Assembly: GCF_003991155.1 (NCBI RefSeq)
Contig: NZ_CP031293.1
Direction: 5' to 3' (one strand)
DNA length: 64,000 nucleotides
Source of the DNA: Escherichia coli
Lineage (GTDB): Bacteria > Pseudomonadota > Gammaproteobacteria > Enterobacterales > Enterobacteriaceae
The translations under genes and the position numbers were made by a program. The notes under the pieces were generated by a model that was not told where the DNA came from, made no database searches, and saw nothing but the letters and a program-made list of their open reading frames with translations. Positions 24,697-31,420 of the stretch are shown piece after piece (position 1 is the first letter of the stretch; each line of letters starts with the position of its first letter).

Positions 24697-24829
24697 CGCA
24701 TCTCCTTGTTAATCCGCTTTCAGCATAAACGTTATTCAGACGCTGCGCTTTGCTTTCATATTCCGGTTGTCGCGACGGCAACATTTCGCTAAAGTCACGC
24801 CCCTTCTTCACCGGCATGGGGATTATTTC

Positions 24830-26182
24830 GTGTTTATTGGTTTTGATTACGGTACAGCAAACTGTTCAGTGGCGGTCATGCGCGACGGTAAACCGCATTT
24901 GCTAAAAATGGAAAACGACAGCACGCTGCTGCCTTCAATGCTTTGCGCGCCAACGCGTGAAGCGGTAAGCGAATGGCTGTACCGCCATCATGACGTTCCG
25001 GCAGACGACGATGAAACGCAGGCGCTGCTGCGTCGGGCGATTCGTTATAACCGCGAAGAAGATATCGATGTTACGGCGAAAAGCGTGCAGTTCGGTCTTT
25101 CCTCACTGGCACAGTACATTGATGATCCAGAAGAGGTGTGGTTTGTGAAATCACCAAAATCGTTCCTCGGTGCCAGCGGCTTAAAACCGCAGCAGGTAGC
25201 GCTGTTTGAGGATCTGGTCTGCGCAATGATGCTGCACATTCGCCAGCAGGCGCAGGCGCAATTGCCAGAAGCGATTACCCAGGCGGTGATTGGTCGCCCG
25301 ATCAACTTCCAGGGGCTGGGCGGCGATGAAGCAAACGCCCAGGCACAAGGGATTCTGGAGCGCGCAGCGAAGCGTGCCGGGTTTAAGGACGTGGTATTCC
25401 AGTACGAGCCGGTGGCGGCTGGGCTGGATTACGAAGCCACCTTGCAGGAAGAAAAACGGGTGCTGGTGGTGGATATTGGTGGTGGTACGACTGACTGTTC
25501 ATTGCTGCTGATGGGGCCGCAGTGGCGTTCGCGTCTCGATCGTGAAGCCAGCCTGCTGGGTCACAGTGGTTGCCGTATTGGCGGTAACGATCTGGATATC
25601 GCACTGGCGTTTAAAAACCTGATGCCGTTACTGGGCATGGGTGGCGAAACCGAAAAAGGCATCGCCCTGCCGATTCTGCCGTGGTGGAATGCGGTTGCCA
25701 TCAACGACGTCCCTGCGCAAAGTGATTTCTACAGTAGTGCCAACGGTCGTCTGCTTAACGATCTGGTACGCGATGCCCGCGAACCGGAAAAAGTGGCCCT
25801 GTTACAGAAAGTCTGGCGTCAGCGTTTAAGCTATCGCCTGGTACGTAGCGCAGAAGAGAGCAAAATTGCGCTTTCAAGCGTAGCGGAAACCCGCGCCTCA
25901 CTGCCGTTTATCAGCGATGAACTGGCTACGCTGATTAGCCAGCAAGGGCTGGAAAGCGCCCTCAACCAGCCACTGGCGCGGATTCTGGAACAGGTGCAAC
26001 TGGCGCTGGATAACGCCCAGGAAAAACCGGATGTCATCTATCTGACTGGTGGTAGCGCCCGATCGCCGCTGATTAAAAAAGCGCTGGCAGAACAGTTGCC
26101 GGGCATTCCGATTGCAGGCGGCGATGACTTTGGCTCCGTCACCGCCGGGCTGGCACGCTGGGCGGAAGTGGTGTTTCGTTAA
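24830..26182 (+). CDS. yegD: Hsp70-family (actin-like ATPase) protein
   Basis: Start trimmed to GTG at 24830 (MFIGFDYGTANCSVAV...), 450 aa; DnaK-like phosphate-binding motifs (VVDIGGGTTD). Confidence 0.88.
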   Translation: MFIGFDYGTANCSVAVMRDGKPHLLKMENDSTLLPSMLCAPTREAVSEWLYRHHDVPADDDETQALLRRAIRYNREEDIDVTAKSVQFGLSSLAQYIDDPEEVWFVKSPKSFLGASGLKPQQVALFEDLVCAMMLHIRQQAQAQLPEAITQAVIGRPINFQGLGGDEANAQAQGILERAAKRAGFKDVVFQYEPVAAGLDYEATLQEEKRVLVVDIGGGTTDCSLLLMGPQWRSRLDREASLLGHSGCRIGGNDLDIALAFKNLMPLLGMGGETEKGIALPILPWWNAVAINDVPAQSDFYSSANGRLLNDLVRDAREPEKVALLQKVWRQRLSYRLVRSAEESKIALSSVAETRASLPFISDELATLISQQGLESALNQPLARILEQVQLALDNAQEKPDVIYLTGGSARSPLIKKALAEQLPGIPIAGGDDFGSVTAGLARWAEVVFR

Positions 26183-26194
26183 TTGAAAAATGGC

Positions 26195-28135
26195 TCAGTA
26201 GCGGCTTAAATCAGCCTTCGCCTGAGCCAGTTTTTCTGCCGCCTGACGTAGCTGCTCCATCAACGGCATGGTCCGTGCTGGAGCATGAAGGCGGAATCGC
26301 TGCAACTCTGTCGCACCGACAGTCAACGCCGATTCCAGCCGATGTCGTTTGGCGGTCATTTTCGCCATTACCGCTTGTCTGTCTGCTGGCGTTACCGCTT
26401 CATTCGGCCTGAAAACAAAACGGCGTTCGCAACTCGCTTTCCAGTCGATAACCGCCTGGGTCAGATGATCACCAAAACCTTTTACTTGCTTAACGCTCCG
26501 TCGGGTAACATCTGCGGCGGTTTCAATACCAAAGGACCGTAACGCCGCTTTACGCGCAGGGCCAACGCCGGGAATAGAGGCAACATCAATAAAAAATCCC
26601 TCCAGAAACTTCTGCTTCTGCCGTTCCCTTGCGGTGTCCTGAAGTGCTGCCAGATCGCGCTTTTCTTCTTCCGGTAACCCAAGAATTTCGTCCTTCATTT
26701 TTTCGAGCATCGTCCGTTTGGCGATAAAACCTTCCAGCCCGCCCAACTGTTGGATCTGGCTGACTAAATGGTCATAGTCCATTTTTGCGCGATTAAAAGC
26801 CTCTCTTTGTCGCTGGACTTCTGCTTTGTACGCTTTGCTTGTCAGGCTGCCAATAATCCAGATAGCCGCCAGCACGGGAACCAAAATGATATAACGCGGT
26901 TCTACCTGAAGGCCGCAAAGCAGCAGCGATAACGCTGACAGTGCGATCTCAATCAGAATGATGTATTCACGCCTTAACAGGCCTAAAGGAAGCGGCCTGC
27001 CAGTCGGTTGGAAATGATCGGGTAATGGCAGTTGCAATGCTGGTGGTGCTACTGACGCCATCACCATCGCCCAGACTTTCGCCAGCACAAAATCACCGCT
27101 GGTGGTAATGACCTCTTCGCCGAGATCAATAAAATAGATAACGCCTTGATTATCCAGCGCACACCACGGGCAGTCAGTCAAATGACCGGGGTAAACATGC
27201 ATTGCCGAAACGGTACATTTCTTTAACTGTTGGCGTAGTAAATCAAGTGCCGCAACCCACGCTTTTGCCGTCGGACGCCCGGTTGCCACGCCACTTTCCG
27301 TGAATGCCTGCTGAAACATGGCTTCAACATCACCTGGTAACATCGACAGCGGAATAGATCGTGGCGGCGGTTTTAAACCACGTCGCTGATTATCTGACGC
27401 GTAGGCATAACGGAAATGGGCAATATCCGTCTCCAGCGCATTACCCGCATCAGAGATAAGCGGTACACCGGAATAAGGATGCCGACCACCAAACAAGACG
27501 TGAAAAATCAGCAACGCAAGGCCAAAATTATCGTGATTCGCGGTGCGTTCAAAGCCAACAAATGACGACAAGGTTTGTAGCTCTGGCGGCGTAAAATGCG
27601 ACACGCCAACTTCGCATAAATGCAACGTGCCATTAGCGTTAATCTGAAAGGAGTCGCTATCAATCAACACCACTTTGCTGTCGCGACCTACCATAAAGCT
27701 GTTCTGGTTTACGTCACCCACGACGTGCCCGTGCTCGTGAATCGTAGCAAAAGATGAAGCAATATTGCGCGCAACATAGAGTAGAAAATCCCACGCACAA
27801 TGAGGGTAACTCTGGCGACGATGTGCCGGGCTATAGATCATATGAATCGGTTCTTTACCTGAAACCTTCGGCATCATAAAACCGATAACCTTTCCGCCTC
27901 GTCCACCGTGAAGCGTTGCCTGCGGCCAGGCGACATAATTCAACAATTGCGCGTCAGCTGTCGCAGCCATAAAGGCAAGTTTGTCCTGTTTTAAGGCGGG
28001 TGGCGGCGTGTGATAAATCTTGGCAACGCTATCGGCAAACTCCTCGATATCATAAACCGCACCTTCACCGCCTTTGCCCAGTTCACGGCCTGGCGTAACG
28101 CACTCACCAGTAGCAGTATATAAAGTGGGTTTCAT
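26195..28135 (-). CDS. yegI: eukaryotic-like Ser/Thr protein kinase with two hydrophobic helices and C-terminal HhH-like motif
   Basis: Gly-rich loop GKGGEGAVY, VAKIY lysine, HVVGDVNQNSF catalytic-loop-like, IDSDSF DFG-like; ATG at 28135 forms ATGA overlap with yegK stop (ORF track extends to GTG 28144). Confidence 0.85.
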   Translation of the reverse strand: MKPTLYTATGECVTPGRELGKGGEGAVYDIEEFADSVAKIYHTPPPALKQDKLAFMAATADAQLLNYVAWPQATLHGGRGGKVIGFMMPKVSGKEPIHMIYSPAHRRQSYPHCAWDFLLYVARNIASSFATIHEHGHVVGDVNQNSFMVGRDSKVVLIDSDSFQINANGTLHLCEVGVSHFTPPELQTLSSFVGFERTANHDNFGLALLIFHVLFGGRHPYSGVPLISDAGNALETDIAHFRYAYASDNQRRGLKPPPRSIPLSMLPGDVEAMFQQAFTESGVATGRPTAKAWVAALDLLRQQLKKCTVSAMHVYPGHLTDCPWCALDNQGVIYFIDLGEEVITTSGDFVLAKVWAMVMASVAPPALQLPLPDHFQPTGRPLPLGLLRREYIILIEIALSALSLLLCGLQVEPRYIILVPVLAAIWIIGSLTSKAYKAEVQRQREAFNRAKMDYDHLVSQIQQLGGLEGFIAKRTMLEKMKDEILGLPEEEKRDLAALQDTARERQKQKFLEGFFIDVASIPGVGPARKAALRSFGIETAADVTRRSVKQVKGFGDHLTQAVIDWKASCERRFVFRPNEAVTPADRQAVMAKMTAKRHRLESALTVGATELQRFRLHAPARTMPLMEQLRQAAEKLAQAKADLSRY

Positions 28136-28893
28136 GGTAACCACATAGCCAGTGCCAACGTTTTATCATCATCCGTACGCTCGTTTACCGCCGGGCTGGA
28201 CAAAAACTGCTTTAACAATTCAGGTAATAAATCGAGTTGTTCCTGCGTTGCTGACGCCAGTCCATTGAAAAACGGGGTAAAGAAAGGCACATGCGGAGAA
28301 TTATCCAGCATATTTAACGCCAGTCTCTGAATACCATCCGTAAATGCTGCAACTCTATGCGCACGCTCAGTGCTGGTGAAAGTTTCCAGTCTGGAAACGG
28401 CATCTTCATCGGTAATGAAATGCGTCATGTTGGCATATTCACCCACCATCGGCGTGAGAGGCAATTGCAGACCGTGACCCAAATCTACCACCACGCCGCC
28501 ATCGCCAATCTGCATAATCAAGGTGCCGTCAGGCGATGAAATCAGTCCCAGAAATGTGCAGGCAAAATCGCGAACCGCTAATTCTTTGGCTTCCGCCTCG
28601 GCAAAAAGTCGCTGACGAACGGTCAGCACAATATCCGTTGCGAGGACATCATTAAGCCCCAATTCCCCGCCCTGCACTTTTTGCATCATATAAGCCATCG
28701 CTTCATTGACGGCAAGCGTCGCACCTTCGCCACCCTGCGAAACGCTGCCTGCGCCATCAGCGACAAATACCGTCAATAATGGCTGCTGGTCTTCTAGCCA
28801 GGCAACCTGCATCTGGCAGGCATCCTGGCAAGGCAAGTCCGCGCTGATGTGCGACGTTCCAACGGTTGATGCATAGACCAGACGCCAGCTCAC
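28132..28893 (-). CDS. pphC: PP2C-family Ser/Thr protein phosphatase
   Basis: 253-aa ORF; PP2C metal-binding signature ([16 protein letters not shown]); ATGA overlap with yegL stop at 28890-28893. Confidence 0.85.
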
Positions 28894-29549
28894 ACTGACG
28901 TCCAGCCTTTTGGCGCTTCCAGCACAACTTCCGTTCCCGGCGTGGAGCGGGAAACCGAACGCAGCGAACTGGATAACCAGCTAAACAGTTCACGGAATTG
29001 TAATCCCTGCAGTGGCAAAGGCTGACGAACGCTGATTTGTGCCAAAGTCTTCATATCCGCCCCCTGAACACCGATGGAAAAGAAGGCAAACTTCTTATCT
29101 TCTTCCCCCTGAAACACTTTGTTGGCGGCAGCCTGCCACTCATCGGTTGGAGCGCCATCAGTGATCAGGAAAATCCACGGGCGATAATACGAAATACCAT
29201 TGGCACGATACTCACGTTTGCGCTCCTCAACCATATTCAGGGCTTTGGTAATGGCAGCGCCCATTGGTGTATCGCCCTGGGCAAACAGGATGGGCGGGAA
29301 AAAATTAGCGGCGCTGGTAAAGGGTTGTTCCACATGCACCGGGCCGAACGTCACAATACCGAGTTCCACTCTTTTTAAGGCCAGCGAATCGGCAAGCAGC
29401 TCATCGCGAAAGGTAACCAATCCGGCGTTAAGTTCATTAATGGGTCTACCGTTCATAGAACCAGAAACATCCAGCAGCAAAATGCAGGGGCAACGTGGTT
29501 CCGGGTTACTGGCAAAATCGCTGGTGGCAAACGTGATTTGTTCGCTCAT
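28890..29549 (-). CDS. yegL: von Willebrand factor A domain protein (TerY-like)
   Basis: 219-aa ORF; MIDAS motif DVSGSM plus downstream ITDG. Confidence 0.85.
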
Positions 29550-29695: not shown

Positions 29696-29724
29696 TTGAC
29701 ACTAAGGGCGGAGTGACATAATTT
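29696..29724 (+). promoter_or_regulatory. sigma70-like promoter of first Sib RNA
   Basis: ttgaca (29696-29701), 17-nt spacer, taattt (29719-29724); equivalent ttgaca-N17-tacttt recurs in each later repeat (e.g. 30031-30059). Confidence 0.5.
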
Positions 29725-29730
29725 CAGGAG

Positions 29731-29877
29731 TGAGGGTTAGGGAGAGGTTTCCCCCTCCCCCTGGTGTTCTTAGTAAGCCTGGAAGCTAATCACTAAGAGT
29801 ATCACCAGTATGATGACGTGCTTCATCATAACCCTTTCCTTATTAAAAGTCCTCTTCTCCGGGAGAGGGTTTCCCGT
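29731..29877 (+). ncRNA. sib: Sib antisense RNA, copy 1 (approximate ends)
   Basis: Antisense to ibs copy 1, between the promoter and a GC hairpin plus T-rich tract (~29855-29880); ends inferred from recalled K-12 sibA geometry. Confidence 0.55.
29770..29829 (-). CDS. ibs: Ibs type I toxin peptide, copy 1 (MMKHVIILVILLVISFQAY)
   Basis: 19-codon minus-strand ORF read by hand; hydrophobic peptide matching the Ibs family; too short for the ORF track. Confidence 0.75.
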   Translation of the reverse strand: MMKHVIILVILLVISFQAY

Positions 29878-30065
29878 TTCAGCGTCCCGCTGAAATCGTC
29901 GGCTTACCTCCTTTCGCCCTGAATGCAGTCTATCGCTAACGCGTGAACAAAATAGTTTCCTCTGTGATTATTGCGTAACGTCTCGCAAAGAATATTTGCT
30001 GGCAGGATCGCAGACTACAAAGCCTGCGGATTGACAATCTGATTGTGAAGGCATACTTTCAGGAG

Positions 30066-30205
30066 TGAGGGTAGAGCGGGGTTTCCCCCGCCCTGGTAGT
30101 CTTAGTAAGCGGGGAAGCTTATGACTAAGAGCACCACGATGATGAGTATCTTCATCATGACCCTTTCCTTATTTAAGGCCCCTTCCTCGGGAGGGGCTTT
30201 CCCGT
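30066..30205 (+). ncRNA. sib: Sib antisense RNA, copy 2 (approximate ends)
   Basis: Promoter ttgaca 30031-30036 / tacttt 30054-30059; terminator hairpin ~30177-30207. Confidence 0.55.
30102..30158 (-). CDS. ibs: Ibs type I toxin peptide, copy 2 (MMKILIIVVLLVISFPAY)
   Basis: 18-codon minus-strand ORF read by hand. Confidence 0.75.
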   Translation of the reverse strand: MMKILIIVVLLVISFPAY

Positions 30206-30393
30206 TTCAGCGTCCCGCTGAAATCGTCGGCCTACCTCCTTTTGCCCTGAATACAGTCTATCGCTAACGCGTGAACAAAATAGTTTCCTCTGTGATTATT
30301 GCGTAACGTCTCGCAAAGAATATTTGCTGGCAGGATCGCAGACTACAAAGCCTGCGGATTGACAATCTGATTGTGAAGGCATACTTTCAGGAG

Positions 30394-30533
30394 TGAGGGT
30401 AGAGCGGGGTTTCCCCCGCCCTGGTAGTCTTAGTAAGCGGGGAAGCTTATGACTAAGAGCACCACGATGATGAGTATCTTCATCATGACCCTTTCCTTAT
30501 TTAAGGCCCCTTCCTCGGGAGGGGCTTTCCCGT
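30394..30533 (+). ncRNA. sib: Sib antisense RNA, copy 3 (approximate ends)
   Basis: Same repeat architecture, 328 bp downstream of copy 2. Confidence 0.55.
30430..30486 (-). CDS. ibs: Ibs type I toxin peptide, copy 3 (MMKILIIVVLLVISFPAY)
   Basis: 18-codon ORF identical to copy 2. Confidence 0.75.
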   Translation of the reverse strand: MMKILIIVVLLVISFPAY

Positions 30534-30721
30534 TTCAGCGTCCCGCTGAAATCGTCGGCCTACCTCCTTTTGCCCTGAATACAGTCTATCGCTAACGCGT
30601 GAACAAAATAGTTTCCCCTGTGATTATTGCGTAACGACTCGCAAAGAATATTTGCTGGCAGGATCGCAGACTACAAAGCCTGCGGATTGACAATCTGATT
30701 GTGAAGGCATACTTTCAGGAG

Positions 30722-30861
30722 TGAGGGTAGAGCGGGGTTTCCCCCGCCCTGGTAGTCTTAGTAAGCCGGGAAGCTTATGACTAAGAGCACCACGATGATG
30801 ATCCACTTCATCATGACCCTTTCCTTATTTAAGGCCCCTTCCTCGGGAGGGGCTTTCCCGT
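30722..30861 (+). ncRNA. sib: Sib antisense RNA, copy 4 (approximate ends)
   Basis: Same repeat architecture. Confidence 0.55.
30758..30814 (-). CDS. ibs: Ibs type I toxin peptide, copy 4 (MMKWIIIVVLLVISFPAY)
   Basis: 18-codon minus-strand ORF read by hand. Confidence 0.75.
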   Translation of the reverse strand: MMKWIIIVVLLVISFPAY

Positions 30862-31049
30862 TTCAGCGTCCCGCTGAAATCATCGGCTTACCTCCTTTCG
30901 CCCTGAATGCAGTCTATCGCTGACTTGCGGATAAAATAGTTTCACATGTGATTATTGCGTGACGTCTCGCAAAGAATATTTGCTGGCAGGATCGCAGACT
31001 GCAAAGCCTGCGGATTGACAATCGGACCGTGAAGGCATACTTTCAGGAG

Positions 31050-31189
31050 TGAGGGTAGAGCGGGGTTTCCCCCGCCCTGGTAGTCTTAGTATGCTGGGTA
31101 GCTAATCACTAAGAGCACCACGATGATGAGTAGCTTCATCATGACCCTTTCCTTATTTAAGGCCCCTTCCTCGGGAGGGGCTTTCCCGT
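31050..31189 (+). ncRNA. sib: Sib antisense RNA, copy 5 (approximate ends)
   Basis: Same repeat architecture. Confidence 0.55.
31086..31142 (-). CDS. ibs: Ibs type I toxin peptide, copy 5 (MMKLLIIVVLLVISYPAY)
   Basis: 18-codon minus-strand ORF read by hand. Confidence 0.75.
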   Translation of the reverse strand: MMKLLIIVVLLVISYPAY

Positions 31190-31420
31190 TTCAGCGTCCC
31201 GCTGAAATCATCGGCTTACCTCCTTTCGCCCTGAATGCAGTCTATCGCTAACGCGTAGATAAAATAGTTTCCTGTGTTATTACTGGATGCGTGCTCGCAA
31301 AAGTGCCTGCCATTCAGACGATTCCCGACAGTGTTTCATAATTCCTCCATTTTTCTCCCTTATTGGCTGGCTACACTAGTATCATTCCGCGAAACGTTTC
31401 AGGAAGAGAAACTCTTAACG

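Follow-up and report, generated by a model that had tools for sequence, protein, structure and literature searches.

The Escherichia coli Ser/Thr kinase YegI: a membrane hairpin, a predicted C-terminal (HhH)2 domain and a possible connection with nucleic acids

The window considered here, by which is meant the whole stretch of 64,000 nucleotides that was analysed, is Escherichia coli chromosome and carries the gene yegI at 26195..28144 on the (-) strand, which is the strand of every feature given with coordinates below. The open reading frame encodes 649 residues from a GTG codon, with RefSeq placing the start at an ATG at 28135 to give 646 residues, and its identification is secure: along all 1950 nt the DNA is 100% identical to entries that bear the annotation 'yegI: protein kinase YegI'. 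The gene is near-universal in the species, being carried by 5410 of 5426 complete E. coli genomes. Because the RefSeq ATG sits three codons downstream, published YegI numbering equals the ORF numbering used here minus 3. The published phosphoserines S153, S160, S162, S602 and S644 thus correspond to ORF residues 156, 163, 165, 605 and 647, and the fact that all five land on serines confirms the offset.

yegI is the last gene of an operon of three, read from the same strand in the order yegL, pphC, yegI. The first, yegL (28890..29549), encodes a vWA-domain protein (Pfam VWA, E=1.3e-9; RefSeq annotation) in whose translation the DxSxS MIDAS motif is present as DVSGS. The second, pphC (also yegK; 28132..28893), encodes the PP2C phosphatase partner of the kinase (Pfam PP2C_2, E=3.8e-51; RefSeq annotation), and its stop codon overlaps the start of yegI by 4 nt, ATGA, as read from the sequence. 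The Hsp70-like gene yegD converges on yegI from the opposite side. The yegJ insertion is absent here and the arrangement is therefore the non-K-12 type of the literature (10.1101/819920, PMC13232886). The operon is reported to show barely any expression under laboratory conditions (10.1101/819920, PMC13232886), and PMC13232886 states, citing earlier literature, that PphC dephosphorylates YegI. The order vWA-PP2C-kinase is kept at the homologous loci L003-L007, L009 and L010, and is conserved in five independent distant contexts, these being all five of the distant contigs that include flanking genes, where kinase identity is 33-40%.

The N-terminal part of YegI, residues 8-305 (27230..28123), is a eukaryote-like Ser/Thr kinase domain, identified from profile matches, invariant residues and published activity. 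Pfam leaves the kinase domain of E. coli YegI itself undetected, HHH_5 being the sole family to reach E<=0.001, and the assignment rests for this reason on homologues and on profile matches to PDB entries. Pkinase is matched by 36 of 45 family members, and the profile of an alignment of 45 family sequences at 32-51% identity (A1) matches the PDB kinases TTK (5.6e-7), RSK and PknE. Residues K42, D144, N146, D162, D164, S165 and Q167 are invariant in A1. The motifs are atypical, as described previously (10.1101/819920), with VGDVNQ as the catalytic loop and DSD (DSDSFQ) replacing DFG. NCBIfam is without a dedicated YegI model, returning weak LanL/LanKC kinase matches together with a weak DinB HhH match. 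YegI is an active Ser/Thr kinase that prefers Mn2+ (Rajagopalan & Dworkin 2020, 10.1101/819920); it autophosphorylates its activation loop, and the kinetics of activation are second-order (10.1101/819920).

Between the kinase domain and the membrane anchor, residues 306-332 (27149..27229) contain the pattern C310-x5-H316-x8-C325-P-W-C328. C310, H316, C325, W327 and C328 are all invariant in 45 sequences sharing 32-51% identity, CxWC is found in nearly all full-length members of the family, and AlphaFold2 (AF2) models a small beta-hairpin (307-319) and a helix (326-332) at this position. The CHCC set is accordingly described here as a putative zinc knuckle, the invariance of its residues being what suggests metal binding.

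The knuckle is followed by two adjacent hydrophobic stretches, YIILIEIALSALSLLLCGL (residues 394-412, 26909-26965) and YIILVPVLAAIWIIGSLT (residues 418-435, 26840-26893), which on the Kyte-Doolittle scale exceed every other part of the protein in hydropathy (2.31 and 2.07 over 19 residues). They lie within transmembrane (TM) helix 1, residues 392-412 (26909..26971; AF2 helix 392-411), and TM helix 2, residues 417-436 (26837..26896; AF2 helix 417-468), both also located by reporter fusions. A loop of 5 residues, QVEPR, joins the stretches, and basic residues (R, K) stand at both outer flanks. The earlier note on this DNA, made from the letters, had proposed a membrane hairpin with both ends in the cytoplasm, and that in-out-in topology is the one established by published PhoA-LacZalpha fusions: those at published positions 340, 390, 439 and 646 report a cytoplasmic location, and those at 414 and 432 a periplasmic or membrane-embedded one, with 432 PhoA-positive (10.1101/819920). 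YegI is thus a two-pass inner-membrane protein with both termini cytoplasmic (Rajagopalan & Dworkin 2020, 10.1101/819920), and its purification requires detergent (10.1101/819920). That the hydrophobic pair might instead be buried core helices is excluded by the fusion data (10.1101/819920).

Two TM helices and a periplasmic loop of about 5 residues therefore hold YegI in the inner membrane. With so short a loop, and both ends in the cytoplasm, the protein is without an extracytoplasmic sensor. In the AF2 model of the full-length protein (45-sequence alignment; mean pLDDT 93.5, pTM 0.81) TM helix 2 runs unbroken out of the membrane and into the cytoplasm, as far as residue 468. Paired, adjacent and strongly hydrophobic segments occur in about 70 of the 79 family members that span the region, their sequence being unconserved, and the pair is missing from a few (P0223, P0158, P0248 and P0249).

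Beyond the membrane, three elements are predicted with high confidence: a stalk of helices, an (HhH)2 domain with two hairpins (HhH, helix-hairpin-helix) and a long terminal helix. The stalk, a cytoplasmic linker of residues 437-514 (26603..26836), is modelled by AF2 as helices 417-468, 470-488, 490-503 and 505-514 with pLDDT above 90, and its sequence is poorly conserved except at L480, L501 and L514. The (HhH)2 domain that follows is predicted for residues 517-580 (26405..26596) and has two G-h-G hairpin motifs about 30 residues apart, IPGVG (524-528) and VKGFG (554-558), the second succeeded by the conserved series W568-x4-E573-R-R-F576-x-F578. A 62-residue AF2 helix, residues 586-647 (26204..26389), ends the protein and bears the published autophosphorylation sites S602 and S644 (ORF S605 and S647; 10.1101/819920).

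The earlier note suspected an HhH element from a single peptide, FFIDVASIPGVGPARKAALRSFGIE (residues 517-541, 26522-26596), which fits the pattern hPGhGxxxA; when YegI was shuffled 20,000 times, this pattern came up in only 65 of the shuffles. Sequence methods on their own give it marginal support. Pfam HHH_5 matches residues 518-554 with E=7.6e-4, and of 45 family members only 2 match it at E<=1e-3; profile matches in the PDB to REV1, DinB, L32e and UvrC have E 0.04-0.4 and are likewise marginal, as is that to Pyrococcus furiosus RadA (1pzn; E=0.076), which aligns over both hairpins. NCBIfam and PADLOC are without a model covering the region. The best C-terminal PDB E-values were those of large clostridial toxin repeats (8jhz, 8ji0, 7u1z), which were rejected as spurious since they sum weak 'W..(R/K)(F/Y)xFxP' matches to a repetitive protein, none of them singly significant.

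An AF2 model of residues 500-600 (70-sequence alignment) has an overall pLDDT of 88 that rises to 93-98 across the HhH region. A Foldseek search of the PDB gives E 0.35-3, such weak values being usual for a domain of about 60 residues, and probabilities that reach 0.97. The list it returns is almost uniformly of (HhH)2 domains, among them RNA polymerase alpha-CTD, the Dmc1/Rad51 N-terminal domain, Hjm, Pol iota, LigA, DisA, NusA and RuvA. The earlier note had allowed that structure prediction might show something other than an HhH fold; AF2 and Foldseek both point to one, and the single motif it had recognised is better described as part of a confidently predicted (HhH)2 domain. The three peptides on which it drew were recovered within the protein, while the span assigned to the whole feature, 26530-26990, proved too short at its left edge, the (HhH)2 domain extending about 125 nt beyond it, to 26405.

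Across 221 family sequences the residues that define the two hairpins are strongly conserved (G528, 97%; G556, 98%; F557, 97%; G558, 98%), as are basic positions that follow them (R/K531, 94%; K532, 80%; R/K569, 92%), with R574 and R575 also conserved. In the same sequences W568 is present in 100%, E573 in 97% and F576 in 99%, and the domain has a mean net charge of +3. The family itself is large. Residues 437-649 of YegI retrieve at least 2,098 clusters (represented at 50% identity) at E<=1e-3, 1,275 of them at E<=1e-10, and most are 640-655 residues long with the same layout and the module at the C terminus. The earlier note had regarded the architecture as unusual for a bacterial kinase of this type; with a family of this size to its name, it is common.

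The layout varies. P0151, P0156 and P0199 have an extra, third TM helix and periplasmic TPR repeats. Non-kinase relatives are also found: in P0212 and P0245 the same module is joined to a cysteine-rich zinc-finger head, P0212 gaining in addition a TM helix and a TonB C-terminal domain, and UniProt I4KB67, which bears the same module, is named "Topoisomerase DNA-binding C4 zinc finger domain protein". Since the module also occurs without a kinase, it is an autonomous unit able to work kinase-free. It is membrane-proximal in most of the architectures examined. Database names have recorded the HhH element for some time. YegI belongs to COG4248 by its identity to yegI, its atypical kinase motifs and its homologous C-terminal HhH module, and HhH has long been in the COG4248 name, quoted already in a 2013 paper; JGI names homologues 'DNA-binding helix-hairpin-helix protein with protein kinase domain', and RefSeq and UniProt name fragments "helix-hairpin-helix domain-containing protein".

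What might an (HhH)2 domain do at the end of a membrane-bound kinase? We infer that it binds nucleic acid. In favour of this reading are the conserved hairpin glycines and basic residues, which are the signature of phosphate contact, the zinc-finger fusion partners, the predicted fold and the conservation of the triad; counted against it are the marginal HhH sequence matches, the Foldseek PDB E-values, all above 0.3, the scant laboratory expression of the operon and the use of this fold in protein contacts as well. The domain would then serve as the input or localisation element of YegI, binding DNA or some other nucleic acid at the inner membrane through the phosphates of its backbone and irrespective of sequence. 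YegI molecules bound in this way would be concentrated or oriented so that they autophosphorylate the activation loop in trans, PphC would reset the switch, and the vWA protein YegL would be a partner or a substrate. We would give this scheme as a whole, from activation by nucleic acid to the parts assigned to PphC and YegL, an even chance of being correct. No DNA- or RNA-binding experiment on YegI was found in the literature searched. The scheme draws some support from a screen in E. coli in which overproduction of YegI or YegL raised endogenous DNA damage, the increase being given as 5-fold or more for YegI, and YegL being counted with the clones in which damage rose strongly (10.1101/354589); the phenotype, coming from overproduction of a membrane protein, may be indirect or an artefact.

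The same domain could instead be a protein-protein or dimerisation module that pairs YegI molecules or docks YegL, PphC or a substrate, with the hairpin merely confining diffusion to two dimensions. Folds of the HhH type do serve protein contacts in ERCC1-XPF, in NusA-AR2/alpha-CTD and in SAM domains, and the most highly conserved residues beyond the second hairpin (W568, E573, F576 and F578) are aromatic or acidic and could form an interface, or equally a core; the adjacent C-terminal helix is, moreover, phosphorylated by the kinase (10.1101/819920). Against this, both G-h-G hairpins and the basic residues that follow them are kept at 94-98%, the domain is net positive, and the non-kinase relatives pair the module with zinc-finger heads, one of them named as topoisomerase-type DNA-binding. 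In purely protein-binding (HhH)2 and SAM domains the G-h-G/basic signature is usually lost. A protein-binding role is on balance a doubtful explanation, though one to be taken seriously.

A further alternative sees in the C-terminal module chiefly a target of autoregulation, which folds onto the kinase and so inhibits or releases it, with HhH as a scaffold for which there is no external ligand. The C-terminal autophosphorylation sites do fall within the helix 586-647, and the pTM of the full-length model suggests a defined arrangement of the domains with respect to one another. The S602A/S644A double mutant, however, suffers only a modest loss of autophosphorylation (10.1101/819920), the module exists without any kinase in P0212 and P0245 and so has a kinase-independent role, and a pure scaffold would leave the strong conservation of the hairpin glycines unexplained; we consider this explanation quite unlikely. 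That the features arose by chance, as buried core helices and an accidental PGVG match with no HhH fold, could draw on the marginal Pfam score and the lack of an NCBIfam or PADLOC model for the region, but is highly improbable and in effect already refuted, given that reporter fusions show membrane insertion and purification needs detergent (10.1101/819920), that so few shuffles reproduce the motif, that the region is conserved across more than 1,200 clusters at E<=1e-10, and that AF2 and the fold search agree on (HhH)2.

Binding of nucleic acid, the reading we favour, can be taken a step further. YegI would be a membrane-tethered nucleic-acid-sensing kinase whose (HhH)2 domain perceives DNA at the membrane's inner face and thereby switches on a yegLKI signalling or defence circuit resembling TerY-P in its logic. 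This extension is speculative and rather unlikely as it stands; if true, the trigger might be, for example, phage or conjugative DNA entering the cell, or contact between nucleoid and membrane after damage. The question matters because YegI is one of few E. coli Ser/Thr kinases, and because nothing in it but the (HhH)2 domain resembles an input, so that the ligand of this domain would show what a vWA-PP2C-kinase triad senses.

Much of this description coincides with what is already on record. The object is YegI itself and the feature is therefore already known, the topology from publication and HhH from database names. Indeed, in the gene, the two-pass topology, the atypical kinase motifs, the partnership with PphC and the HhH annotation there is no difference between the protein encoded here and published YegI. 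The fusions, the kinase activity, the topology and the dephosphorylation by PphC are experimental results. The YegI paper, cited here in its bioRxiv version, was published in FEBS Lett in 2020; the bioRxiv version never mentions an HhH domain (10.1101/819920). The present analysis adds that the domain extends over two hairpins, that the CHCC residues of the knuckle are invariant, how large the family is and which variant architectures it includes. In sum, the original observation is confirmed and its interpretation supported structurally, a function in binding nucleic acid is what we infer from these structural features, and the feature is ordinary and known.

Among comparable systems, triads in which a TerY-like vWA protein is combined with a PP2C phosphatase and a Ser/Thr kinase were reportedly described as TerY-P by Anantharaman, Iyer and Aravind in 2012. 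yegLKI shares with them adjacent, co-directional genes for the three proteins, and a kinase whose C-terminal extension carries a zinc element, a domain presumed to bind nucleic acid, or both. The literature on such triads includes the TerY-P anti-phage system of Gao et al. 2020 and triads associated with CoCoNuT (PMC11090510), and in the triads described the kinase is extended at its C terminus by an OB fold or zinc ribbon (PMC11090510, PMC4978471). The extension of YegI differs, being composed of a CHCC knuckle, a membrane hairpin and (HhH)2 rather than an OB fold or zinc ribbon alone, and yegLKI differs also in being core-chromosomal in E. coli, as the genome counts above attest, and not part of an accessory defence island. 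PADLOC gives no match to YegL, PphC or YegI at E<=0.01; with the threshold raised to 10 only YegL resembles TerY (E=0.014, 13 bits), and PphC and the kinase match no TerY-P model. No anti-phage or stress-resistance experiment on yegLKI was found in the literature searched. On account of the PADLOC result, the different extension and the core-chromosomal location, yegLKI is likened to TerY-P here and not filed under it.

With PknB, PrkC and PpkA YegI has in common a eukaryote-like kinase fold, autophosphorylation of the activation loop, a PP2C partner and anchoring in the membrane. Those kinases have one TM helix and an extracytoplasmic sensor (e.g. PASTA), whereas YegI has a hairpin and keeps all of its domains in the cytoplasm; receptor-type Hanks kinases are recognised by a single TM helix with an external sensor, and YegI falls outside that type. 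The nearest analogue in logic is DisA, in which a helical spine connects a signalling enzyme with an HhH domain that binds DNA at the C terminus of the protein. The likeness is one of logic only: beyond the HhH fold the two sequences are not homologous, and DisA, a diadenylate cyclase, is soluble and octameric, whereas YegI is a protein kinase anchored in the membrane.

The segment that joins the kinase domain of YegI to its membrane anchor contains a motif of three cysteines and one histidine, C310-x5-H316-x8-C325-P-W-C328 (residues 306-332 of the 649-aa ORF; window 27149-27229, minus strand), which was identified by its invariance in the alignment. It is kept by all 45 of the YegI homologues (32-51% identity), and nearly all full-length members of the family carry CxWC. 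Judged from its sequence, this CHCC motif is probably a zinc knuckle. The text of the YegI preprint (bioRxiv 10.1101/819920) makes no mention of it. The kinase domain of the E. coli protein is unusually divergent, with VGDVNQ and DSD motifs. A Pfam-A search of E. coli YegI (window 26195-28144, minus strand) returned no kinase family, even at E ≤ 10; Pkinase was matched by 36 of the 45 homologues.

The architecture of the family is variable. The relatives P0151, P0156, and P0199, of the 786-1006 aa class, extend past the HhH module with a third transmembrane helix and with TPR repeats in the periplasm. A cysteine-rich zinc-finger head stands in place of the kinase in P0212 and P0245, the former further gaining a transmembrane helix and a TonB C-terminal domain and the latter several hydrophobic segments. 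Another relative, UniProt I4KB67, bears the name "Topoisomerase DNA-binding C4 zinc finger" protein.

Within the operon, the stop codon of pphC overlaps the start of yegI in the tetranucleotide ATGA (window 28132-28135, minus strand), an arrangement that suggests translational coupling. Because yegJ is absent between these two genes, the window represents a non-K-12-type E. coli. In E. coli strain PEC403 (NZ_CM168009.1, 3238427-3241714), yegI is interrupted by an IS4-like ISVsa5 element, and its two halves are annotated separately, each as a "helix-hairpin-helix domain-containing protein."

Between yegL and mdtA, a 328-bp unit recurs in tandem, with 4.8 copies and 93% matches (window 29717-31282). 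In an E. coli record whose yegI is 100% identical to that of the window, ibsA and four further genes for Ibs type I toxins, five in all, are annotated in the corresponding interval, which suggests that the array is an expanded ibs/sib toxin-antitoxin repeat. On the other side of the operon, the mechanical ORF of yegD (window 24767-26182, plus strand) has a TTG as its first codon, which precedes the RefSeq start at window 24830 by 63 nt. The RefSeq start agrees with the NCBIfam match, whose first position is residue 22 of the ORF.

An overproduction screen listed both YegI and YegL (window 28890-29549) as "DNA-damage-up" proteins, with a 5-fold or more increase on overproduction of YegI; the clones chosen for mutation sequencing included those of YegL (bioRxiv 10.1101/354589). 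This listing links the operon to DNA, possibly only indirectly. At locus L007 (7812-11018 of one metagenomic contig), a triad of vWA, PP2C, and TPR-bearing kinase genes adjoins genes that Pfam matches to pP_pnuc_1 and, faintly, to SMODS. These neighbors are CBASS-like defense components, which may place the L007 triad in a defense-island context.
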